A DNA stretch of 32,000 nt from contig NZ_CP147990.1 in NCBI RefSeq assembly GCF_037902255.1, positions 3,630,001-3,662,000 of the forward strand, read 5' to 3'. Every line of letters begins with the position of its first letter. Within the stretch, counting starts at the first letter, position 1. Source of the DNA: Candidatus Electrothrix sp. GW3-4. Lineage in GTDB: Bacteria; Desulfobacterota; Desulfobulbia; Desulfobulbales; Desulfobulbaceae. This document shows positions 5,597 to 32,000 of the stretch, in pieces. The position numbers and the translations under genes are program-made. The notes under the pieces were generated by a model. The model searched no databases. It was given only the letters and a program-made list of their open reading frames with translations, and had not been told where the DNA came from.

Positions 5597-5835
5597 AGGG
5601 TTGAACTTGCTCCTCAAGCAAGCACCTCGCTTTCCCATCGAAACAGGAGAGCTGAGAAGAAAGCCACAGCCGTCGCGAGGCGGTGTCGGAAAGCCACGGA
5701 TCTCTCGGGAGGAGACCGCCGGGTTGCCACCTTGTACTTCTTGATGTCTAAAAATCTTTACATTACGACATCAATGCACCAAGGCAAGCTGCCCGGCTCA
5801 AGCTGCTGGCCATATCAAAAGCCATCTTTTCTGCT
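5597..5835 (+). promoter_or_regulatory. Candidate structured 5' leader / cis-regulatory RNA (class unknown)
   Basis: Hairpin CTTGCT-cctca-AGCAAG at 5606-5622. GNRA-capped hairpin GCCGTC-GCGA-GGCGGT at 5669-5684, flanked by the direct repeat AAAGCCAC(A/G)G at 5660-5669 and 5690-5699. GGCGGT (5679-5684) can alternatively pair with ACCGCC (5715-5720). An 8-bp inverted repeat TTGATGTC...GACATCAA lies at 5741-5774. Confidence 0.25.
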
Positions 5836-5966
5836 TAACATCCTCCCCCTCGTACTTTCAAACCGACCTGTGTAAAGGACGAACTCCTGCTCTGTGGCCA
5901 TAGATACTTTTGCTCGTCCACCAGAACGCATACTTATCTTTCAGAGAAGAAAAGGAGGAGGGAGTA

Positions 5967-6869
5967 ATGACAAAAAAAATCATGGCAGTACTTGCTCTGC
6001 TGCTCATCTTTATCGCACCAGGTTTAGCTGCTCAAACAATCAATAGTGGTAACGTTAAAATAGGTATCCTTTCTTGGCGAGGGCCATTGGGTTTTAAAAA
6101 GAGCTGGGAAGGCACTGAAAAATACCTTACCAAGGCACTTGGGAGAACGGTGACCATTCTCCCCTTAGAATTTAAAGAGGTGCTGCCTGCCGTAAAGCAG
6201 GAAAAGGTCGATTTTTTCACTGCCGACCCTTCCATGTTCATGAGTGCCAAGACACAATACGGCGCAAGTGAAGTACTAACCATGAAGCTTATCAATGCCG
6301 ATTCTGTTGGTGCTGTGATCTTTACAACAACAGGAAATCAGAATATTAATAAACTTTCTGATCTCAAAGGAAAAAAGTTTGGCGCCTTACAGCGATGGTC
6401 ATTTGGTGGCTGGCAGATGGCGGAAAAGGAATTCCGCAATGCAGGGCTTGACCCCTACCCCTTGCTGCACACCCTACGTTTCTTTGACAAACCCAATGCT
6501 GTGGTGAGAGCCGTTCTTCGTGGACAGGTTGATGCTGGCACCGTGCCAGCCAGCATTCTGGAACGGCTGGCAAAAACAGGAAAGATAAAGATGAGGGATA
6601 TGAAAATCCTCAGAGAAAAGGATTACCCTGATTTCCCTTATACCTGCTCAACAGAACTTTACCCTGGCTTTCCTCTGGCCAAAACAGCGACTGTTGGTCA
6701 TACCTTAGCCCATGAGATGGCTGATGCACTCAAGGCCTTACAACCGGGAGATAAGATCCTGAAGGCTGCCCGGATCACGGGTTGGGTTGACCCGCTTGAC
6801 TACGCAGACATTGAAATCGTTCAATCACAGCTCAGAGGCGGGGGCTACACCGGACGACGCATTCATTGA
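5967..6869 (+). CDS. PhnD-like (phosphonate/phosphate-type) periplasmic substrate-binding protein, ~300 aa
   Basis: ORF 5910..6869 trimmed to the ATG at 5967, which is preceded by AGGAGG. It has a signal peptide (MTKKIMAVLALLLIFIAPGLAAQ). The type-2 periplasmic-binding-fold sequence (VKIGILSWRG...EVLPAVKQEKVDFFTADPSMF) resembles the PhnD-like family. Confidence 0.75.
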   Translation: MTKKIMAVLALLLIFIAPGLAAQTINSGNVKIGILSWRGPLGFKKSWEGTEKYLTKALGRTVTILPLEFKEVLPAVKQEKVDFFTADPSMFMSAKTQYGASEVLTMKLINADSVGAVIFTTTGNQNINKLSDLKGKKFGALQRWSFGGWQMAEKEFRNAGLDPYPLLHTLRFFDKPNAVVRAVLRGQVDAGTVPASILERLAKTGKIKMRDMKILREKDYPDFPYTCSTELYPGFPLAKTATVGHTLAHEMADALKALQPGDKILKAARITGWVDPLDYADIEIVQSQLRGGGYTGRRIH

Positions 6870-7398: not shown

Positions 7399-8424
7399 TC
7401 ATGAGGCAAGATTCTCGCGCAGCCAATCCTTTAATCTCCAGAAAGCCTGCTCTTCCAAGTCAGCGCAGCCCATGATCCTCTCAGCCATAACAGAGTATGT
7501 GTCATCCAAACCGCCCCGTCCCTTACATATCCGGGCTGCCATAACCGCAAATTGCCGCCAGCGATCGCCTGCCTCGGTAAAGAGGGTCGCTACATCAAGC
7601 AAGGCCTGATCGTGAAGTTCCTTACCGCTTTCCTGAAGAAAGGCAGCATACATAAAGCGAAAGCCGCCCCCACCAGTACCTATTTCCTCCTGCATGCGCA
7701 CGGTATGGCCGAGATGCAGCTCAGCGCTCTCCTTGCCCAGACGTTCCGGCCAACGCTCCAGCCTTTTGGCCAGAAAGCGTATCCCTCTCACCCCGATGAG
7801 GGGAAACGGGCTCCCGAGCATCATCCGGCAGACAGAGCGGATCCCCTGCCGGATCAAGGGGGTGAGCTCCAGCTGCTCAGGCGTCTCGCTCAGATAGTAC
7901 ATCTTGCCCTTGGGGGCCAAGGCACCGGCAGCAAATCTGGCCCGGACCAGATTCGGGGCCGGGCAACGCACCGGCTGAGGAAAGACCGGATCACTGATCA
8001 GGTATTCATCGCCTTCCTTGCCATAGACCACCAGGTTATGGGCATTAAAATGAAAACGCAAGGCCCTGGGAAAATAAGGAAGCCAGAAGACCCCGGTCTG
8101 CAGGCCCACGGGAATGGAATCGGCAAGGGCCGCGTCCAGCTCCGCCATAGCCTGTTCCTGGCTCCTGAAACGTTTTTCAACCATCCTGATGCCGGAAATC
8201 TTGGCAAAGCGCTTCAGGATATGACCAGCCGCAGCCCGATAGGTCACCAGGGGCAGGCCGTTGATCCGAATAAAGGGGAAGTAGCCAAAAAAAAGCCCTT
8301 CACCAATGCCAAAGGTCATGGCCTCAGAGAGCCTGATACCATGCCAGTTCAGGATGCTGGCAGCGGCTCCGCTTTCGCAATGGGCTGATTGGGTATGGGG
8401 GAAATCAATGGTTAGGTTTTGCAT
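7399..8424 (-). CDS. BtrH N-terminal domain / DUF4872-type protein (papain/C39-like fold), 341 aa
   Basis: The N-terminus FPHTQSAHCESGAAASILNWHGIRLSEAMTFGIGEGLFFGY matches the characteristic HCES...LSE..FG.G.GL pattern of BtrH_N proteins. The length fits the BtrH_N+DUF4872 architecture. Confidence 0.75.
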   Translation of the reverse strand: MQNLTIDFPHTQSAHCESGAAASILNWHGIRLSEAMTFGIGEGLFFGYFPFIRINGLPLVTYRAAAGHILKRFAKISGIRMVEKRFRSQEQAMAELDAALADSIPVGLQTGVFWLPYFPRALRFHFNAHNLVVYGKEGDEYLISDPVFPQPVRCPAPNLVRARFAAGALAPKGKMYYLSETPEQLELTPLIRQGIRSVCRMMLGSPFPLIGVRGIRFLAKRLERWPERLGKESAELHLGHTVRMQEEIGTGGGGFRFMYAAFLQESGKELHDQALLDVATLFTEAGDRWRQFAVMAARICKGRGGLDDTYSVMAERIMGCADLEEQAFWRLKDWLRENLAS

Positions 8425-8436
8425 ACAAAGAGAGGC

Positions 8437-8856
8437 TTACTGCTGATTATAGACGGGATCCTTGAGGATCCCTTGACGAAGGTCTTTTGAGGAGACGAGA
8501 AAGACCTTCGCATACCTGTCGAGTGTTTTCTGACCCAGGCGGCGAAAGAAAAAAGGGATCAGATGAAGGCGGACAAGACAGCGGGCCTGACCGGTGTACC
8601 GGGCCAAGAGGCCAATGTCCATCTGATTGGCAATCATATAATAATGAAGACAGCTCACCCGGTCCTGGGCGATCTTTTCCTTGGAGGCGGCAATATGTTG
8701 TTCTATCTCCTCCCAGGCCTGGCGGTTGACAATATTTACCGGCTGCCAGACAGAGCCGGGGATCAGCTCCTGCTCACCCTGCGCATCTGCAATATAACTG
8801 ATGGTGTGCAGACCGCCGGTGACGCTCTCTTCTCTATCATCCTGCTCGTTCTCCAT
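8437..8856 (-). CDS. Hypothetical protein, 139 aa
   Basis: The start codon abuts the stop codon of the upstream PagL-like gene (TGA at 8857-8859, ATG at 8854-8856), with GGGAG upstream. No recognisable family. Confidence 0.6.
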   Translation of the reverse strand: MENEQDDREESVTGGLHTISYIADAQGEQELIPGSVWQPVNIVNRQAWEEIEQHIAASKEKIAQDRVSCLHYYMIANQMDIGLLARYTGQARCLVRLHLIPFFFRRLGQKTLDRYAKVFLVSSKDLRQGILKDPVYNQQ

Positions 8857-9465
8857 TCAGAAAGTCACTCCCACCAGAAACTTATAGGCGTTGAGCGGAT
8901 CATTGGCTTCCTCGCTGCCGTTATTGGAGATATGGTGGTAACGTGATTCTATGAGCAGTTTACGGTTCTCCGTCCATGCATATTCCAGCCCGATGCCGAA
9001 CTGGTAATTTCCATTAAGATCTGCTCCCATCCCTGAAATATCGGCAAAATTATAGACCGGGCCACCGCCCCCGAACAGATAGGGCTGCCAGATCGAATCT
9101 GCGGTGAAGGTGTAGGCACCGAGAAAATTTATTGCCAACATGGCTGATTCATCCGGACTGAGCACCAGGGAGAGAGGGACTTCGAGCAAGATGGAATGAA
9201 AGCCCCTGTACCAGCCCGAACCCATCTCAGCGATGATCCGATGGCTATAACGGGGGATCAGCTCCAAGGTCTTGACCCGCTCTTCGGTCTCGCCCCAACC
9301 AGGGACTGACTGACCATAGCCACCAAAAACAACCCAACCATCCTGAGAAAAATCAAAAGGGTCAACCAGCTCTGCCGCATTTGCCATGCCCCTGCTCAAA
9401 AGGAGGATGACAGCAAAGGCGCAGAGAAAGGATAAGGAACGAAGGAACAGCATATATTTCTTCAT
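8857..9465 (-). CDS. PagL-like outer-membrane acyloxyacyl hydrolase (lipid A deacylase family), 202 aa
   Basis: It has a signal peptide ending in ANA and a C-terminal ...LVGVTF typical of OM beta-barrels. SRYHHISNNG resembles the His-x-Ser-Asn catalytic motif of PagL-type enzymes. Confidence 0.65.
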   Translation of the reverse strand: MKKYMLFLRSLSFLCAFAVILLLSRGMANAAELVDPFDFSQDGWVVFGGYGQSVPGWGETEERVKTLELIPRYSHRIIAEMGSGWYRGFHSILLEVPLSLVLSPDESAMLAINFLGAYTFTADSIWQPYLFGGGGPVYNFADISGMGADLNGNYQFGIGLEYAWTENRKLLIESRYHHISNNGSEEANDPLNAYKFLVGVTF

Positions 9466-10395: not shown

Positions 10396-10841
10396 CGCCT
10401 GTTACTGGAGGGAAGCAACTCTCATTGGATATACTCGATGAAGCAGAGCCATCATTCTGGCTAAATCAACTTTTAACCATCTTGCATGAAAAGTAAACAG
10501 AAAATCACTGCTGATAGGATGGAGTGTACCCAGCCCGCTATCACAGGCGAAAATCAAACCGCGCAGTGATGTGGGTTACAGGGCGGGGTCGCGAGTTCGA
10601 ATCTCAGATTCAGGGCAATAACAAACCGGGTCACGCACTACGCACGCACTCAGTCAAACACAGCAGACATATCACGGTCGATCCTGCATAACCCGCTTCA
10701 ATACTTCTCCCCCCCTTTTCCTCGTCTATTTTCCCCCATTGTGTCAACCGTGCCAACTATTGTAATATATTTGAACTGCTGGAAGTTTAAGGATTGAGAA
10801 AGGAAAAAGACACAAGGAATAATTCAACATGTTTTTTTATT

Positions 10842-11081
10842 ATGAAACGGTTTGCTCTTTATTACAAGAAAGAACGTTTATCTCATTGCAAACTTCATGG
10901 CGCAATTGAGGCTGAAAATAGTACAAACGCATTTATAAAGGCTGTTAATACCATTCGAGCAGGCGGTCTTGATCCAGATGAATTTAGGGAATTTTATATC
11001 GTCCCTGTCACCCCTGACAACTCAGTGCAATACAAAATGCAATGTTACGGATGGGACGAGAGCGGAGATTTTCCGAGATAA
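10842..11081 (+). CDS. Hypothetical small protein (79 aa from the ATG at 10842; start uncertain)
   Basis: It is the only sizeable ORF in an AT-rich gap of about 1 kb. There is no convincing RBS and no family is recognised. Confidence 0.3.
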   Translation: MKRFALYYKKERLSHCKLHGAIEAENSTNAFIKAVNTIRAGGLDPDEFREFYIVPVTPDNSVQYKMQCYGWDESGDFPR

Positions 11082-25699: not shown

Positions 25700-26743
25700 T
25701 CATGGTGTCGGCCTATGCGTCAATGCTGGCATAAAGATGAGCCAGTTGAAGTCACTAAGAACCCCCGCCCCTCCAAGGACCACATCCTTTCCAGAATTAT
25801 CAGCTCCTGCTGTTACAGTTACTTCAGTAGCGCCAGCAAAGCTCGTCGCATCCTGATACCACTCATTAAACGAAGCTCCGTAAGACTCAAAAACCTGCAG
25901 CTTATGGGGACCAGCTGGCAGACCCTTTATTTGATATTCACCGTTGCCATTTGTTTCAGCATATCCTCTCCAAACCTGATTGCTGTCATAGGCGTCAATC
26001 CAAGCACCCACAACCGGGTCACCTGTCCCATGATAAGTGACCGTCCCAGAGATACTGCCACCGAGGGCGAGAGCGGCATTCACCACATGAGTATCATCTA
26101 ATGCTGAGATTGTTATGAGATCGGCGGTTTCCTCCTCCTTATCATTATACCACTCGGAGACATAGTCAGTAGCCACCGCAGAAAAACGAAGCGTATAGCT
26201 CCCCACTCCCAAACCGGCAAGAATATAATCACCATTTTCATCGGTAAGATCCGAGCGTATCAAATCATACGTCTCGTTAAACAAATGTACGTATACCCCA
26301 GCTATAAAAGTAGCGGAGTCTCCCTCAACAGTTATCGTTCCAGATATTTGAGCATTGCTTGTGACCAAGGATGTGATACCAAGATCGACAGTACCTGTTT
26401 CAGAAACTGGCACCAGATTCGCGTCGTCCTTAATTGCTTGATTATTATACCATTGACTAACATAATTGGTTCCATAGGTGGAGTAGTGCACCTTATAGTC
26501 TCCTGCGGCCAAATCAGTCAGAATATAATAGCCGTCTACGTCAGTCTTATCACCGAACAGCCAGTTTCCACTGTCATCATACACGTCCACCCATAAATTT
26601 GGAATAGCAGCACTATCGGACGCTTGCTTCACATATCCTTCTATAGCTCCGGCCTGCGTTTCGGCAACAGCTAAAAAAAGAACCAAAAAAATTAACAGCA
26701 GCGTTAAAGGTAAAAACCTACAAGAAAATGATCCTTCTTTCAT
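25700..26743 (-). CDS. Secreted protein with three tandem carboxypeptidase-regulatory-like (CarboxypepD_reg/Cna-B-like) repeats, 347 aa
   Basis: It has a signal peptide (…LVLFLAVAETQAGA). Three modules of about 95 aa each contain (I/S)(E/S)G(Y/T)V...D.NG.Y.I..L..G.Y.(V/L)...(V/F)S(Q/E)WY(N/Q)(N/D). RBS GGGGGAG; TATAAT at 26767-26772 on the minus strand. Confidence 0.8.
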   Translation of the reverse strand: MKEGSFSCRFLPLTLLLIFLVLFLAVAETQAGAIEGYVKQASDSAAIPNLWVDVYDDSGNWLFGDKTDVDGYYILTDLAAGDYKVHYSTYGTNYVSQWYNNQAIKDDANLVPVSETGTVDLGITSLVTSNAQISGTITVEGDSATFIAGVYVHLFNETYDLIRSDLTDENGDYILAGLGVGSYTLRFSAVATDYVSEWYNDKEEETADLITISALDDTHVVNAALALGGSISGTVTYHGTGDPVVGAWIDAYDSNQVWRGYAETNGNGEYQIKGLPAGPHKLQVFESYGASFNEWYQDATSFAGATEVTVTAGADNSGKDVVLGGAGVLSDFNWLIFMPALTHRPTP

Positions 26744-27094: not shown

Positions 27095-27589
27095 TTAGCG
27101 TGGAAATTGCTCTATTATAGAAGAGGTCGCTTTACGCAGGTAGTACGAGAGCAGAGCACAGGCAACAATGCGGAAGGATTGGAGACGCATGAACGGACTA
27201 CGCAGGTCAATTTTTTTTCTACGGGTGATAATATTCTGCACACGTCCAACAAGATGATCAACAGGTATAAAACAATCAAAAGAGCGACATGCATCTCCTT
27301 TGGTTTGCAGATACAAAACATTACTGTAACAACGACGTCGAAGCAGCCGGTGGATAAGAGGGGACTTTTGCGGGGTGCAGAAAAGAACAATATCACCCAG
27401 GCGAGGATTCTTTCCTTTAAGGGAAGAGATTTCAACTAAATCTCCGCTTTGTATCAAAGGCATCATAGATTCACCAGACACCTTAATACGCACGTTAATG
27501 CCCTCACGGAGCAGAGTACGCACAAAATCTAGCGCTCCTTGGTCGCGAATGCTGATTGTCGGCAAATCGTTCATGAACACCGAACTCAT
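27095..27589 (-). CDS. S26/S24-family serine peptidase, SipW/archaeal-type signal-peptidase-I-like, 164 aa
   Basis: VSGESMMPLIQSGDLV carries the Ser nucleophile motif. GDIVLF, IHRLL and LQTKGDA (Lys general base, TKGD) follow, then VDHLVGRV. ATGA overlap with the upstream kinase-like gene at 27586-27589. There is a C-terminal hydrophobic segment. Confidence 0.7.
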   Translation of the reverse strand: MSSVFMNDLPTISIRDQGALDFVRTLLREGINVRIKVSGESMMPLIQSGDLVEISSLKGKNPRLGDIVLFCTPQKSPLIHRLLRRRCYSNVLYLQTKGDACRSFDCFIPVDHLVGRVQNIITRRKKIDLRSPFMRLQSFRIVACALLSYYLRKATSSIIEQFPR

Positions 27590-28497
27590 TGCAACGATAG
27601 AGCCAGCTTTTCTATAGCTTCTCTGGCGCTTTGATCAGGCCGAAACGCAAGCTCAAACACAGGAATATCTTTCAACAACCTCTCACACAGCACAAGCCCT
27701 TTGCTGGTCCATTCTTCGCTATACCAAGGAATAGAAACCGTCTGAAGAAGACGATGCAGTCCTATTGACGGAGGAAGCTCCACAATCCTAGTTTGTTGAG
27801 CTTGTCGAAGAAAAATAAGTGCAGAAAGAGGTGCGGATTCATTTCGAGCGATTCTCCCTTCACCGTGCCAAGGTGTTCCCCATACCTGCCAGGTATCGTT
27901 AACAGAACGAATGATCAAACGCTCTTCGCTGAAGAGGCAATTTTGTGAATTAGAAAACAGCAATCGGCTGAGGGTAGACTTTCCTCCTCCAGACGGCGCA
28001 GGAAAAACGAGTCCCTTTCCATAAACAGATCCTCCGGCTGCATGGCTGATCAGCCCTTGCTGATTTATAAAGCTGTGCTGAAGTAAAAACAGGCTAAGTG
28101 CTAGCTTAGAAGGAAGAAGCGGCTTCTGCGTTTTGGCAATATTATCTAAGAAGAGAGCGTAATCAAACCGCTCAAACTGAGGATCAATTTCAAGTGCCCA
28201 CAAAAAAACCTCCTCAGAAGGAGTGAGGTGAAGAACCTGGAGATACCCTTTTTCCGTTTTGTAAAAACTTGATCGCTGCTGAGTAAGTATTTTTTCAAGT
28301 TGGTTAACAGCCGGTTTCCTTTCGCAGCAAGAAGCAATGTGTACCTGAAGATCTTCCGGCTGCTGCTCCGGTTTTTTTTCAAGGCGGGCAAAAGAAATAA
28401 AATCTTTTGCCCAAGTCACATCAGAGTCATTCTGAACAAGACAATATTCGGAACTGCATCGAATGGCTATGCCACCAAGAGAGCATTGAAAATTCAT
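27586..28497 (-). CDS. HPr-kinase-like (HprK C-terminal-domain-like) P-loop kinase, 303 aa
   Basis: HAAGGSVYGKGLVFPAPSGGGKSTLSRLL is a P-loop in the context typical of HprK-related kinases. The start codon lies 6 nt after the stop codon of the small peptide ORF. Confidence 0.7.
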   Translation of the reverse strand: MNFQCSLGGIAIRCSSEYCLVQNDSDVTWAKDFISFARLEKKPEQQPEDLQVHIASCCERKPAVNQLEKILTQQRSSFYKTEKGYLQVLHLTPSEEVFLWALEIDPQFERFDYALFLDNIAKTQKPLLPSKLALSLFLLQHSFINQQGLISHAAGGSVYGKGLVFPAPSGGGKSTLSRLLFSNSQNCLFSEERLIIRSVNDTWQVWGTPWHGEGRIARNESAPLSALIFLRQAQQTRIVELPPSIGLHRLLQTVSIPWYSEEWTSKGLVLCERLLKDIPVFELAFRPDQSAREAIEKLALSLQ

Positions 28498-28503
28498 TAG
28501 CCC

Positions 28504-28683
28504 TCAAGATGACCTTGGGTTCTGCAAACAGGTTCCGTTTGGGAACACCTCAAAGCATCCGCCAAGGACTTGGTCTGCAAACAGTGCAACTGTCTTGAGC
28601 TGAGGTTTCTCATATCGTTTTTTCAACGCGATATTCTTCTCTTTCTTTTTCAAACCCGTTATATTATTTTTATGTTCTTCCAT
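28504..28683 (-). CDS. Unannotated 59-aa candidate RiPP precursor peptide: MEEHKNNITGLKKKEKNIALKKRYEKPQLKTVALFADQVLGGCFEVFPNGTCLQNPRSS
   Basis: Hand-translated from the minus strand: ATG at 28681-28683, TGA at 28504-28506. It fills the otherwise empty gap between the rSAM gene (14 nt upstream) and the kinase gene (6 nt downstream). It has a Lys-rich leader with YEKPQL (YxxPxL), a Gly-Gly junction, a 2-Cys core and a C-terminal Ser-Ser. The SD is weak (GACGAG). Confidence 0.6.
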   Translation of the reverse strand: MEEHKNNITGLKKKEKNIALKKRYEKPQLKTVALFADQVLGGCFEVFPNGTCLQNPRSS

Positions 28684-28697
28684 CTTTACTCGTCATG

Positions 28698-29858
28698 TTA
28701 AGTGGTCTGATTATCAGACGACAGTGCTTTTTTCTTTCGTAATGAGCTGCTCTTACAGTAAAAAGAAACTACATTATTCAGCACTCCCGTCTCTAATACA
28801 AAGTTACTCGGACACCCTGCACAAAAACTTCGACTCTGACAACTTGAACAGGCAAAAGAGGGTGGCGCCTTCTGCTCGGGAAACTCATTACTCATTACAC
28901 TCCAAACATCGGAGATTGTCCGACCGGCAAGGAGGTCATATGAAAAATGAGGTGATATGATACATGGTTGCATCTTACCATACGGAGTAACATGATATGA
29001 TGACCGGCCAGCTCCGCAGTAATATAATTTATCCCTAAAAGACCCCACATCAGAACGCGCCGTTATCAATTTTTGCAACTCATTCCTAACCTTATCGATA
29101 GCAAAATCTGCTTCAACGGCCTCCTCATAGGGAAGACGAAAACGCAATATATCCTGAGGTCGATCCCTGCCCGTGCCATCATTCATATTCGTACAGCCAG
29201 CATGGTTATCTTCGTTGGGTAAAACAGGTATAATTGAGGAGTCATGACGAAAAGGCACTCCTAACTTTTCAGCCATTTCCCACATAGCTGAAAGCTCCTG
29301 ATGATTCAAGGTCATCACTATCGCCTTAAGGCGTAACCTGATCTTTTCACCAACAAGTCGTTTTATTCCATTAAGACATAAGGTGAACGAACCAACTTTC
29401 TGAGTTATGGACTCAAAAGTTTTTGCATTGGCACCATAAAGAGTTACGTCCACCGCTCGTGGAGGATACCGAGTGAATAAGCGTACAATACTATCTGAAA
29501 GCGACGTACCGTTGCAATATACCGAGACGAGCAGTCCTGATCGTACTGCATATTCATACACAGTAAGAAAATCATCCCGAAGCATTGGATCTCCACCAGT
29601 CAATGTCAAAAAGAGTGTCCCTGCCTCCACCATCTCATCAAGTAACCTAATGATAGCCTCTGTATTAAGTTCCTTATGACGGTACTGCCAAATCCCCTTC
29701 TGATCTCCAAGATAACAATGCACACAACGAAAATTACAGCGATGTGTCAACTCAAAGGATGCTGATATCGGTATACGAGCTCCTGCTGCACGAGCAAGAT
29801 AGCGATCAATCTCATCGGATTCCACTCCTGCACAATCTTTTTCCGTCCCTTTTACCAT
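28698..29858 (-). CDS. Radical SAM protein with a SPASM-type C-terminal auxiliary-cluster domain (peptide maturase-like), ~386 aa
   Basis: CNFRCVHC (CxxxCxxC) and GGDPML are present. The C-terminus YYCGAGRSSYHVTPYGKMQPC...FACSSCQSRSFCAGCP is SPASM-like. The ATG at 29856-29858 overlaps the PqqD stop codon (TGATG). Confidence 0.9.
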   Translation of the reverse strand: MVKGTEKDCAGVESDEIDRYLARAAGARIPISASFELTHRCNFRCVHCYLGDQKGIWQYRHKELNTEAIIRLLDEMVEAGTLFLTLTGGDPMLRDDFLTVYEYAVRSGLLVSVYCNGTSLSDSIVRLFTRYPPRAVDVTLYGANAKTFESITQKVGSFTLCLNGIKRLVGEKIRLRLKAIVMTLNHQELSAMWEMAEKLGVPFRHDSSIIPVLPNEDNHAGCTNMNDGTGRDRPQDILRFRLPYEEAVEADFAIDKVRNELQKLITARSDVGSFRDKLYYCGAGRSSYHVTPYGKMQPCIISPHFSYDLLAGRTISDVWSVMSNEFPEQKAPPSFACSSCQSRSFCAGCPSNFVLETGVLNNVVSFYCKSSSLRKKKALSSDNQTT

Positions 29859-30148
29859 CAAATTGCCACAGACAATCCTGATTCGACCAAATCTGTTATA
29901 ACTTCAAGCAAGTCTGCCTCAATTTCCTCCCTAGGTGCGTCATACTCCTGTTCGAGCAAGCTCCCTATTTCGGCAAGAGTTCGAGTGCCATCAATGGAAG
30001 ACCAAATAAGTGCCCCTGTATCATTCAGCGTATACAGTTCATCCATAGAGGCAAGCTCTCCTGAAATAGGTACCAGCAAAGTCTCATCCATCACTTTACG
30101 TGTAACTATATTATCAGCCTTTCTGTATATACTATCTAACCTCACCAC
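29858..30148 (-). CDS. PqqD-family protein (RiPP recognition element-like peptide chaperone), 96 aa
   Basis: The size and the sequence VTRKVMDETLLVPISGELASMDELYTLNDTGALIWSSIDGTRTLAEIGSLLEQEYDAPREEIEADLLEVITDLVESGL fit PqqD. GTG start; the exact start is uncertain. Confidence 0.85.
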   Translation of the reverse strand: MVRLDSIYRKADNIVTRKVMDETLLVPISGELASMDELYTLNDTGALIWSSIDGTRTLAEIGSLLEQEYDAPREEIEADLLEVITDLVESGLSVAI

Positions 30149-30170: not shown

Positions 30171-30204
30171 AGATAAAGAAAGGCGAAGATATCTCATCTC
30201 CGCC
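30171..30204 (-). terminator. Intercistronic hairpin plus U-rich tract between the C25 peptidase and PqqD genes (terminator or attenuator)
   Basis: The minus-strand RNA GGCG-G-AGAU-gagau-AUCU-U-CGCC (30182-30204) is followed by UUUCUUUAUCU. Only about 20 nt remain before the PqqD start, so read-through is probably needed for downstream expression. Confidence 0.4.
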
Positions 30205-30222: not shown

Positions 30223-32000
30223 TTAGCGCTGAATCACAGTAGCAGGATCACCAAGAAGGTTGTAAACATCCAATAAATAGCGATCATCCCTCTGATCGCC
30301 ACATTGATCAGCATAATACTGTTTTCCCGACACGATGGCATCGCCGAGACTGGGATTTATTGGGTCCAAAAAGCTTCGATAAAACCCTTCAGACATTGTG
30401 TACGATGCATGATTCCTCACCATACCTGTGGCCCCGTAAAAAGCGCTTGCGGCACCACCAGCCTTTAGTAGCGCTGTTTCGCCTATACTATTTATCGTAG
30501 GGTAACCAAAGCTTGCAGATCCACAGGAGGCACTGAACATGAGCATAGGGTTGCCTATCTCCTGCATATCCTCAATTTCACTCGCAGTCAAGAGATACTT
30601 ACCATGACGTCCATACGCCGTCATAGTACTATGCCCTATATAATGCATAATACCTGAGCCTTGCTGCATCGCTTCAACAATCTGCCCACGGACACTACTT
30701 AACGGCTGTGTCTCTGCGGAAAGACGATTGACCGTAAAATATGGGGACATCAAAGCGGCAACTTTATCCGCAGCAGCCTCAAAGTCTCCGACACTTGGAT
30801 CTGCCCTATCCGTGATCAGCGTCAATTCAGTACTCTTATTATGGCGATTCTCTTCATAGAAGATCAATTTACTGATAAAAGAGTCAAGCTCTCGGCTGTT
30901 ATACGCCGGAATCCTCCCAAGAGCAAACTCTGGAATTTTATCATCACCAATAACATCTGCAAAGAAATTATCACTTGGAAGAAAACCAACCGGAGTCTGT
31001 ACAAGGACACTGGGGACCTGAGGATATCCATAGTCTAGATAGTTTTGATAGTCGTAAGAACCTACCCCTATCAAGGTAATATATCGAGGCACTCTTGACC
31101 ATTTTTCAGAGACATAAGCAAGGAAGTCATGCACGGCCTCAGGTGCAAGCAAACCATAGCTGAATTCATCCTGAATGTCCTCAATATCAACGAGCATTGT
31201 TGTCATTCCCTGAGAAGCTCTATATTCGGCAAGACGTTTCGCTGAATCCATCAAGCCCAAGGAGGTGATAATGACATAGTCAGCCTGATTATCCTCATTG
31301 CGTAAATATGATATCGTATCAACAACGTGGATTTCACCAGAAATAGTTGAGTCGATATTCTCCGTGATATAATAATTAGATCCCGGCTCTGTCAAGATTG
31401 TAACGTTATATTCGCCAACCTGATTTTTGCCAATAAGAGGGCGTAATCGACGAGGAGTGAATGGATCTGTCACATCAAGAGCCAATACCGTGCCACGAGT
31501 AAAACCTTCTACAGTAACTTGATTATATCCGCCGTCATTGAAGAACAACTCTCCGTCAACGGCTTGGTATGCACGGTTATAATCCAGCCCTATAGACTCA
31601 AGATAAACAACCGAATATTGGACATTCCTATTCAGACGTGAGATCAGAGTTACTTTATTATCATCCTCATTAAGCTGGTCAGCAGAAACCTCAGCGCTAA
31701 ATTGATAATCTCCCTTTTCCGACCATTCCGCCGTGCCTATTTTATTCTCATTGAGGAGGATATCCACCTTGAATGAATCAGCACTACCGTAATTCTCATA
31801 TTCGACACCAACCAAATCCACTGTCAGTATAGCTGTTCCGCTCCCTGTCATATATGGCGCATCAATAGAGTATGGCCCAGAAGTGGTATCCTTACCATAG
31901 GCAAGGATGCGAGCCCACGCCCAAAGGTCTTTAACCGGCGTGTCAATATAAATATGGAAAGGGGCACCATTTTCTTCAACCCGATTCTGCGCGAAAAATG
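30223..32000 (-). CDS. Peptidase C25 (gingipain-family) cysteine peptidase, N-terminus outside the window (partial)
   Basis: MHYIGHSTMTAYG (catalytic His context) and MLMFSASCGSASFGY (catalytic Cys context) are present. The frame stays open upstream of the first Met (31851) to the window edge: ...FFAQNRVEENGAPFHIYIDTPVKDLWAWARILAYGKDTTSGPYSIDAPYMTGSG. Confidence 0.8.
   Translation of the reverse strand, partial: FFAQNRVEENGAPFHIYIDTPVKDLWAWARILAYGKDTTSGPYSIDAPYMTGSGTAILTVDLVGVEYENYGSADSFKVDILLNENKIGTAEWSEKGDYQFSAEVSADQLNEDDNKVTLISRLNRNVQYSVVYLESIGLDYNRAYQAVDGELFFNDGGYNQVTVEGFTRGTVLALDVTDPFTPRRLRPLIGKNQVGEYNVTILTEPGSNYYITENIDSTISGEIHVVDTISYLRNEDNQADYVIITSLGLMDSAKRLAEYRASQGMTTMLVDIEDIQDEFSYGLLAPEAVHDFLAYVSEKWSRVPRYITLIGVGSYDYQNYLDYGYPQVPSVLVQTPVGFLPSDNFFADVIGDDKIPEFALGRIPAYNSRELDSFISKLIFYEENRHNKSTELTLITDRADPSVGDFEAAADKVAALMSPYFTVNRLSAETQPLSSVRGQIVEAMQQGSGIMHYIGHSTMTAYGRHGKYLLTASEIEDMQEIGNPMLMFSASCGSASFGYPTINSIGETALLKAGGAASAFYGATGMVRNHASYTMSEGFYRSFLDPINPSLGDAIVSGKQYYADQCGDQRDDRYLLDVYNLLGDPATVIQR

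Follow-up and report, generated by a model that had tools for sequence, protein, structure and literature searches.

Conserved candidate precursor peptide genes beside radical-SAM, PqqD and ScmC-family genes in cable bacteria and other bacterial lineages

A small gene between a radical-SAM and an ScmC-family gene

In the cable bacterium Candidatus Electrothrix sp. GW3-4, a short open reading frame (ORF) of 59 codons lies on the minus strand of a 32,000-nt stretch of contig NZ_CP147990.1 (positions 3,630,001 to 3,662,000), which was analysed as a whole and is called the window here. The ORF is embedded in a cassette of genes for a PqqD-family protein, a radical S-adenosylmethionine (rSAM) enzyme, an ScmC-family protein and a protease of the S24/S26 type (Table 1). 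In an earlier note, made from the sequence alone, it had been proposed that the ORF encodes the precursor of the adjacent rSAM/PqqD system, with a YxxPxL leader and a core containing two Cys residues. Synteny, the residues conserved among homologs and purifying selection on the reading frame support this proposal, and the ORF is very probably a real gene which encodes a precursor peptide.

On re-translation, the 59-residue minus-strand product was reproduced exactly, and the motif Y24-E-K-P27-Q-L29 as well as G41-G42, C43, C52 and S58-S59 were each confirmed in it. As had been described, the ORF fills the gap in the operon: the rSAM gene ends at 28698 and the next gene starts at 28497, which leaves spacers of 14 nt upstream and 6 nt downstream. 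The description of the ORF as unannotated does not hold, since a public record exists under the name 'hypothetical protein WGN25_16195' (NCBI, Candidatus Electrothrix sp. GW3-4).

Table 1. Features of the cassette and its flanks, in positions of the window.
Feature	Position	Strand	Details
Predicted precursor peptide gene	28504..28683	(-)	59 aa plus stop codon; translation MEEHKNNITGLKKKEKNIALKKRYEKPQLKTVALFADQVLGGCFEVFPNGTCLQNPRSS, then stop
Conserved segment R23-L40 (RYEKPQLKTVALFADQVL), predicted leader recognition segment	28564..28617	(-)	Contains Y24-x-x-P27-x-L29 (28597-28614) and F35
Putative core G41-S59 (GGCFEVFPNGTCLQNPRSS)	28507..28563	(-)	C43 28555-28557; C52 28528-28530; C-terminal S59 28507-28509
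Discrete PqqD-family peptide chaperone (RiPP recognition element), 96 aa	29858..30148	(-)	PF05402, 9.4e-18
Radical SAM/SPASM peptide maturase, 387 aa, without N-terminal RiPP recognition element domain	28698..29861	(-)	PF04055, 5.7e-18
303-aa protein of the ScmC family (PF27840) with HPr-kinase/PEPCK fold; proposed C-terminal Ser kinase	27586..28497	(-)	Precomputed PF27840
Soluble S24/S26 protease (SipW/archaeal-type, signal-peptidase-like), 159-164 aa; proposed leader peptidase	27095..27589	(-)	Peptidase_S24 1e-5; S26 5e-5; sigpep_I_arch 1.1e-12
Surface-type protein of 2064 aa with Peptidase_C25; its C-terminal 590 codons lie here and the gene runs past the window	30223..32000	(-)	PF01364, 8.6e-68
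Secreted CarboxypepD_reg-repeat protein, 347 aa, three such domains, tail of the cassette	25700..26743	(-)	PF13620, 3.5e-28; N-terminal signal-like sequence
Terminator-like GC hairpin with T-run, between the C25 stop codon and the pqqD start	30182..30204	(-)	Consensus match only

By its motif the ORF does not stand out. A scan of short ORFs revealed a second Y..P.L in the window (YFQPQL in a 30-aa ORF, 10840-10932, minus strand) and several further ones in related loci, and YxxPxL by itself is therefore not beyond chance. In addition, the Shine-Dalgarno sequence is weak, as had been remarked before, with just GAG around -8, and no match was obtained for the window peptide in Pfam and NCBIfam or for five relatives in NCBIfam, even at E = 10. 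Searches of the PDB with the peptide and with its profile also gave no match. The motif, the Shine-Dalgarno sequence and the missing family models would fit an ORF that arose in the spacer by chance, or a small protein which has nothing to do with the enzymes on either side.

It is the conservation and the family-wide synteny which place the ORF beyond chance, not the motif. An ortholog of likewise 59 aa and 69% identity (P0002) is encoded on a contig with the same gene order, namely C25, PqqD, rSAM, peptide, ScmC, S24/S26. Between both genes, the ratio of nonsynonymous to synonymous substitution rates (dN/dS) is 0.07 over codons 23-59 and 0.17 over the whole ORF; the first 22 codons are far less constrained than the rest. 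Within codons 23-59, the differences number 2, 4 and 14 at the first, second and third positions, so that 14 of 20 fall on the third. The other five frames yielded dN/dS values of 0.3-1.5, which makes the coding frame the best of six. Frame-disrupting variation among close relatives, which had been named as a possible objection, is thus replaced by the opposite picture of a frame under purifying selection. Since third-position substitutions dominate, since position and strand are conserved across several phyla and since 751 homolog clusters exist (see below), a chance ORF or an unrelated small protein is rejected as barely credible.

A peptide family with a conserved leader and terminal serine

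For the retrieval of related loci, the neighbouring 303-aa ScmC-family protein was preferred as query over the less specific rSAM enzyme. About 100 homologs were obtained, nearly all of them from Electrothrix or Electronema, and an alignment of the homologs retrieved 31 genomic loci, 14 of which belong to cable bacteria and related Desulfobulbaceae metagenome-assembled genomes. The remaining loci are from Nitrospira, Desulfosudaceae, Nitrospinae, Acidobacteriota, Binataceae/Binatus, Terriglobia and Dehalococcoidia. Small ORFs in the cassettes were then found with hidden Markov models made from the first peptides. Among 35 related loci from six lineages (cable bacteria, Nitrospira, Desulfosudaceae, Nitrospinae, Acidobacteriota and Binataceae), every complete cassette contains a peptide-family ORF, and the conserved small ORF on which the proposal had been made to depend does exist in syntenic loci. 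It shares the strand of the cassette at all loci but L029, and eight cable-bacterial loci carry two peptide genes.

The family extends beyond these loci. A word-indexed profile search of a collection of 5.8 billion proteins gave 812 proteins, and an exhaustive profile search of 1.84 billion representatives at 50% identity gave 751 clusters at E <= 1e-3 and 209 at E <= 1e-10. Among the matches listed, no Pfam domain is recorded for any of the peptide homologs, and wherever a source name is given it reads 'hypothetical protein'; for six representative peptides of the family, no NCBIfam model was found.

In cable bacteria, it is conserved that the peptide gene stands after the maturase gene, a placement which had been seen as a caveat. 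Here, as well as in Nitrospira and Desulfosudaceae, the order is C25, PqqD, (peptide), rSAM, peptide, ScmC-family, S24/S26, and in cable bacteria only the CarboxypepD_reg protein is appended at the end of the cassette. In Binataceae, the peptide gene comes first (peptide, S24/S26, ScmC-family, PqqD, rSAM), and the order in Acidobacteriota is peptide, rSAM, ScmC-family. In cable bacteria, the ScmC-family gene follows immediately downstream of the peptide gene, and this pairing is also seen in variants found in Electronema and relatives. One cassette harbors two peptide-ScmC pairs, the pair being duplicated as a unit (L003, 4711-7888), and at another locus a peptide and ScmC-family pair without PqqD, rSAM enzyme and protease is located between C25 and CarboxypepD_reg genes (L004, 173-1323). 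At a third locus an additional peptide gene directly follows a second C25 gene (L011, 11862-12038). In Binataceae, a protein of ~690 aa without a Pfam match directly precedes the peptide gene (L035, 4401-7996; L022-L027).

The leader motif Y-x-K-P-x-(F/V/L) occurs in nearly all members of the family, and 12-15 residues separate it from the first core Cys. Two core Cys residues were found in 145 of 147 representatives, and 138 of 151 unique peptides combine them with a terminal Ser. The terminal Ser itself is present in 119 of 120 peptides, in 143 of 151 unique peptides and in 147 of the 150 best representatives, compared to 6.9% Ser at other positions; two of the three representatives that do not end in Ser look like read-through artefacts. 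A tail of the form last-Cys-x6-Ser is shared by 125 of 151 unique peptides, the window peptide among them. The dominant soil type reads KKPYxKPxFxxERVFETxAL(T/S)CGKVQSTQxxCHxNRKxS, and the core of the soil lineages, CGKVQSTQSGCHQNRKxS, is strongly conserved.

A conservation check had been suggested in the earlier note for the leader motif, the Gly-Gly pair, the Cys spacing and the terminal Ser. Here, conservation was confirmed for the Y, the P and the hydrophobic residue of the motif, for the two Cys and for the Ser at the end, but not for the Gly-Gly pair. G41-G42, which had been read as a double-glycine junction, is present in the window peptide; however, only 8 of the 27 cable-bacterial peptides have GG and the other clades lack it, so that such a junction is not a feature of the family. 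A Gly directly after QVL is found in 17 of these 27 peptides.

These residues bear on the possibility that the peptide is a lasso precursor, or a double-glycine peptide of the class II bacteriocin type with a simple disulfide. The YxxPxL leader, the discrete PqqD protein and the HPr-kinase-like gene resemble phosphorylated lasso clusters, and G41-G42 stands before the first Cys as a double-glycine junction would. The term 'lasso-type' that had been used for the ORF is apt for the leader motif and the PqqD-type protein, but the cluster contains neither a lasso cyclase nor a B2 protease. No asparagine-synthetase-like cyclase or transglutaminase-like B2 protein was found in the operon, among the large ORFs of the window or in the related cassettes. 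Furthermore, a Thr at -2 is missing, and at no junction does an Asp or Glu fall on core positions 7-9 (...QVLGG/CFEVFPNGTC...), since E45 as the sole acidic core residue takes position 3 or 5. For a double-glycine bacteriocin, both the distribution of GG among the clades and the absence of a C39 peptidase and an ABC transporter from the window operon speak against it. Both alternatives were rejected and appear highly improbable.

Among the 27 cable-bacterial peptides, a segment of 17 residues, YEKPxLxxVxLFADQVL, has a mean pairwise identity of 0.69, compared to 0.34 each for the core and the N-terminal part. Apart from the Cys residues and the Ser, the cable-bacterial cores are hypervariable, and several loci carry two different peptides. 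Judged from the aligned peptides, a conserved leader segment together with a variable core is the classic leader/core pattern.

The cassette enzymes and a proposed maturation pathway

The reading favored here with moderate confidence, and by analogy to known systems, is that of the precursor of a peptide synthesized ribosomally and modified post-translationally (RiPP). Its lasso-like leader would be held by the PqqD protein, its Cys-containing core would be cross-linked by the rSAM enzyme, its terminal Ser would be phosphorylated and a protease would remove the leader. The generic composition of an rSAM RiPP system that depends on a RiPP recognition element (RRE) is found at the locus: an adjacent, co-oriented and conserved ORF, purifying selection on it, and an rSAM enzyme with SPASM Cys residues next to a PqqD-type RRE.

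In a first step the precursor would be translated, for which the conservation and purifying selection described above argue. The PqqD protein would then bind the leader via Y24, P27 and L29, probably also via F35, and present the peptide to the enzymes, as suggested by the precedents of lasso B1 proteins and PqqD. For lasso RREs, a cleft has been reported to accommodate the YxxP motif together with a conserved Leu, and a hydrophobic patch to be completed by a downstream Phe that is likewise conserved (PMC6784204). The 96-aa PqqD protein itself shows weak matches to the models of PqqD from pyrroloquinoline quinone (PQQ) biosynthesis, lasso PqqD and ScmD, all under the cut-off. In the PDB, it matches PqqD (3g2b, 1e-5) and the lasso protein TfuB1 (6jx3, 4e-5) about equally. 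From these analogies, recognition of the leader by PqqD through the YxxPxL motif can be expected with good confidence.

In the third step, the rSAM/SPASM enzyme would modify the core. Here, the likeliest product would be one or two intramolecular cross-links at the two Cys residues, of the sactionine or ranthionine thioether type. The enzyme displays the cluster motif CNFRCVHC and a C-terminal C-x17-C ... CSSCQSRSFCAGC ... C arrangement, so that a full rSAM motif and a seven-Cys SPASM motif are present, and PF13186 was matched in the Binataceae homolog. Since the CxxxCxxC motif stands near the N-terminus, the enzyme has no fused RRE. Altogether 67 NCBIfam rSAM/SPASM families were matched, none of them near the cut-off; the better matches include the mycofactocin and PqqE models, and alignments to the AlbA and PapB models cover most of the enzyme. 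Among solved structures, those nearest to it are the thioether-forming SkfB (6efn, 5.7e-12), PqqE (6c8v) and CteB (5wgg). By analogy to such enzymes, thioether formation at the Cys residues has a chance which we put just short of even.

The likeness to PqqE and mycofactocin enzymes is also what one would expect if the peptide were the precursor of a small redox cofactor or a metal-binding molecule, like PqqA for PQQ or MftA for mycofactocin, of which just a few residues (Cys, Cys and the terminal Ser) would be retained; it would then not serve as a secreted bioactive peptide. The parts list, comprising a small peptide, a PqqD chaperone, a peptidase and an rSAM/SPASM enzyme, is indeed that of PQQ and mycofactocin systems. 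A comparable leader, aromatic-x-K-P-x-F, is found in PqqA. Strong conservation of the core in the large soil clade would fit as well, and an exporter or immunity gene is absent from the window operon. However, the hypervariable cable-bacterial cores and the several loci with two different peptides suggest diversified peptides rather than one cofactor, partner oxidoreductases and PqqB/C-like genes are missing from the cassette, and a major facilitator superfamily (MFS) transporter gene lies beside Binataceae cassettes. A cofactor precursor is therefore regarded as quite unlikely.

The fourth step of the favored pathway concerns the C-terminus. The ScmC-family protein, encoded 6 nt downstream of the peptide gene, would phosphorylate the hydroxyl group of the C-terminal Ser, as suggested by its fold, its signature, its co-occurrence with the peptide and the near-invariant Ser. 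In NCBIfam, the 303-aa protein weakly matches HprK_rel_B, ScmC and HprK_rel_A. A search of the PDB by sequence gave a spurious match to YjbA only, and the profile of the protein gave P-loop and phosphoenolpyruvate carboxykinase (PEPCK) matches only, so that the resemblance to HPr kinase/phosphorylase (HprK/P) required a fold search. The AlphaFold2 model has a mean confidence (pLDDT) of 91.9, and Foldseek matched it to ATP-PEPCK with 6.5e-7 and to HprK/P with about 3e-4. Across 32 homologs, no variation was seen at H152 or, within the P-loop, at S169, G172, K173 and T175, and position 174 is occupied by either Ser or Thr throughout. Furthermore, all of them have an acidic residue at both 191 and 192, and 31 of the 32 have the Arg of R193. 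The His, the P-loop and the acidic pair are what we take to be the catalytic signature of HprK/P (H-x(n)-GxSGxGKS ... DD).

This agrees with what is known of HPr-kinase-type RiPP kinases, in that the fold is present with intact His, P-loop and acidic pair and the precursor ends in Ser. In lasso systems, HPr-kinase homologs phosphorylate the C-terminal Ser of linear precursors and recognize little else, and in some of these clusters a nucleotidyltransferase, sometimes fused to a protease, decorates the phosphate (PMC8498205). The terminal Ser-Ser pair listed in the earlier note is present, but its likely meaning had not been drawn there: an HPr-kinase-fold gene follows directly downstream, and the terminal Ser is the most conserved residue of the core. 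An annotated lasso kinase was also sought by tblastn of the 303-aa protein against plasmids, which gave one irrelevant weak match.

In lineages with an NTP_transf_5 nucleotidyltransferase, the phosphate may be decorated further. NTP_transf_5 and MFS transporter genes are transcribed divergently beside the cassette at four Binataceae loci (L026, L027, L035 and L036), and NTP_transf_5 is also present at L022-L025. In Desulfosudaceae, it follows the protease gene (L017), and in Nitrospinae the S24/S26 and NTP_transf_5 matches lie in one uninterrupted reading frame (L020, 5165-6874). This gives four parallels to the lasso kinases: the fold with intact signature, the near-invariant terminal Ser, the association with NTP_transf_5 and the tight pairing of peptide and ScmC genes. 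Based on these parallels, phosphorylation of the terminal Ser by the ScmC-family protein is slightly better than an even proposition.

The kinase-like protein might also serve to activate the terminal Ser or one close to the end. In this case, the phosphate would be eliminated to give dehydroalanine, to which a Cys adds to form a lanthionine-like ring, or the C-terminus would be remodelled in another way, and the rSAM enzyme would do another job; in a variant, the ScmC-family protein would be an ATP-dependent scaffold and the Ser would stay untouched. Phosphorylation followed by elimination is an established route in lanthipeptide classes II-IV, and PEPCK-like folds catalyse phosphoryl transfer to varied acceptors. 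The last-Cys-x6-Ser spacing in 125 of 151 peptides could reflect the geometry of a ring, but this statistic is dominated by one soil clade and the cable-bacterial tail measures 5 to 9 residues. On the other side, a C-terminal dehydroalanine would be chemically labile, and the cassette yielded no gene for a lyase or cyclase. Moreover, the lasso precedent gives stable phospho-Ser end products (PMC8498205). Phosphorylation-elimination is mentioned for LanM-type domains (PMC9259500). Activation of the Ser is on the whole unlikely, with somewhat better prospects than a cofactor precursor. Phospeptin, described in the same work, is a LanM-type phospho-RiPP and was set aside as unrelated (PMC9259500).

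As the last step of the pathway with a phosphorylated Ser and a cross-linked core, the soluble SipW-like S24/S26 protease would cut off the leader between L40 and C43. Its SM.P, HR and GD motifs (Ser/His/Asp) are kept from cable bacteria to Binataceae, and an N-terminal membrane anchor is absent. Type I signal peptidases prefer small residues at -1 and -3. That the protease is the leader peptidase is an even call.

Several observations weigh against this pathway. Every chemical step of it rests on analogy, and for the rSAM enzyme the reaction is not readable from homology because no curated family cut-off is reached; the two core Cys residues could instead form a disulfide or bind a metal. The scores of the 303-aa protein stay far under the HprK_rel_A/B and ScmC equivalog cut-offs, with 19-24 bits compared to 125-200 (ScmC, 23 compared to 125); HprK_rel_A/B matches as a whole span 19-38 bits compared to cut-offs of 200. 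The protein resembles PEPCK at least as much as HprK/P. The leader-peptidase assignment is weak because the junction displays no clear small -1/-3 pattern. NTP_transf_5 is absent from the window cassette and from the cable-bacterial loci, the window operon has no exporter gene, and the weak Shine-Dalgarno sequence counts on this side too. Furthermore, 7 of 36 locus-derived peptides, all from Electronema-type loci, do not end in Ser, each having a Ser within at most 4 residues of the end. Finally, the cassette of a Dehalococcoidia locus (L030; ScmC-like, PqqD, rSAM) has a small ORF (8804-8950, plus strand; E 0.46) with a YEKPKM leader and an unrelated core which ends in ...FFGLCCR and not in Ser. 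This ORF may represent another type of substrate or a chance match. It overlaps the last ~90 nt of the rSAM reading frame.

Related systems and flanking genes

The phosphorylated lasso peptides (paeninodin, pseudomycoidin and proteobacterial relatives) have in common with the present system the YxxPxL leader with a downstream Phe, the discrete PqqD-family RRE, the HPr-kinase-fold gene and a precursor ending in Ser. As in their clusters, a nucleotidyltransferase gene is present in many relatives, once in-frame with the protease (L020). In contrast, the lasso cyclase and the B2 cysteine protease are replaced here by an rSAM/SPASM enzyme and a SipW-like serine protease, and the peptide has neither a Thr at -2 nor a macrolactam acceptor. 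The kinase-like protein here belongs to the ScmC family (PF27840), and its likeness to lasso kinases such as PadeK, ThcoK and PsmK is drawn from fold and signature.

SynChlorMet (SCM) cassettes contain ScmC, the PqqD protein ScmD and two rSAM/SPASM enzymes, ScmE and ScmF (TIGR04248-04251). With the present system they share a protein of the ScmC family next to a homolog of PqqD and an rSAM/SPASM enzyme resembling PqqE. Unlike in SCM, there is one rSAM enzyme and not two, and an S24/S26 protease and an identifiable precursor are added. Compared via the family models, the scores stay far under the equivalog cut-offs, with 67 versus 400 bits for ScmE and 26 versus 100 bits for ScmD besides the ScmC value given above. 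By the TIGRFAM description, the SCM cassette is reported to lack an assigned precursor. The peptide family is a concrete candidate substrate for ScmC-family proteins and, by extension, a lead on SynChlorMet-type cassettes.

With sactipeptides and ranthipeptides (SkfB, AlbA, CteB, PapB), the system shares an rSAM/SPASM maturase, a short Cys-containing core and a predicted guidance by an RRE, SkfB being the closest solved relative. It differs from them by a separate RRE protein which is not fused to the maturase, by two Cys residues only and by a kinase-like protein and a terminal Ser in the conserved set; also, no family cut-off is reached. In PQQ (PqqA/D/E) and mycofactocin (MftA/B/C/E) biosynthesis, too, a small peptide and a discrete PqqD-type chaperone are found together with a peptidase and an rSAM/SPASM enzyme. 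In MftA, a functionally important residue is located at the C-terminus, to which the terminal Ser can be likened. In contrast to both systems, a Glu/Tyr or Val-Tyr target and PqqB/C or MftD/F genes are missing here, the cable-bacterial core is hypervariable and a kinase-like protein is present.

Taken with these comparisons, the family would belong to the rSAM RiPPs that depend on an RRE, and its kinase module for the C-terminal Ser would be borrowed; we found no curated protein model or paper for it. Searches of the literature on ScmC/HPr kinase, radical SAM and PqqD combinations, on SynChlorMet and on cable-bacterial RiPPs gave nothing relevant, with most subscription journals lying outside their coverage. 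Tentatively, and at somewhat less than even chances, an undescribed RiPP class may be present, with this peptide as a founding example, in which a module of lasso-type leader, RRE and C-terminal-Ser kinase (plus nucleotidyltransferase) has been recombined with an rSAM/SPASM enzyme and a signal-peptidase-like protease. Its products would be cross-linked and C-terminally phosphorylated; the class would be widespread in uncultured phyla of soil and sediment, and multiplied and diversified beside giant C25-domain proteins in cable bacteria. The family comprises about 750 clusters from at least six bacterial lineages, mostly uncultured; among the members checked, all that bear a name are 'hypothetical' and none has a Pfam or NCBIfam model. 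If the reading is true, phosphorylation of a C-terminal Ser would be a tailoring module common to lasso and radical-SAM RiPPs, which is of interest for the evolution and the engineering of RiPPs.

In cable bacteria, the multiplied and hypervariable cassettes between surface and secreted proteins represent a lineage-enriched feature of which no published account was found. The full C25 gene, read at locus L033 (2267-8461), encodes the 2064-aa protein with DUF11, DUF7933 and DUF7507 repeats and a C-terminal Peptidase_C25 domain, similar to gingipain and PorU, and a gene for a GerE-type response regulator diverges upstream of the C25 gene. The C25 gene heads the cassette in cable bacteria, Nitrospira and Desulfosudaceae, and not in Binataceae or Acidobacteriota. 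At the other end, a homolog of the CarboxypepD_reg protein is found at the same position in nearly all cable-bacterial loci. From the placement beside C25 surface proteins, a function on the surface of the filament may be suspected, for example in recognition, competition or metal handling, and less so a classical antibiotic. Given the terminator-like hairpin between the C25 gene and pqqD, the genes pqqD-rSAM-peptide-scmC-S26 may form a transcription unit of their own, and the C25 gene is perhaps not co-transcribed.

Two further features lie elsewhere in the window. A protein with BtrH_N, presumably a papain/C39-like fold, and DUF4872 domains is encoded at 7399-8424 on the minus strand, ~20 kb from the cassette and on the same strand as it; no link to the peptide is established. 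On the plus strand, a c-di-GMP-I riboswitch aptamer (RF01051) is located at 5653-5731 with a score of 49 bits compared to a gathering threshold of 35, ~180 nt upstream of an ORF at 5910-6869 on the same strand.

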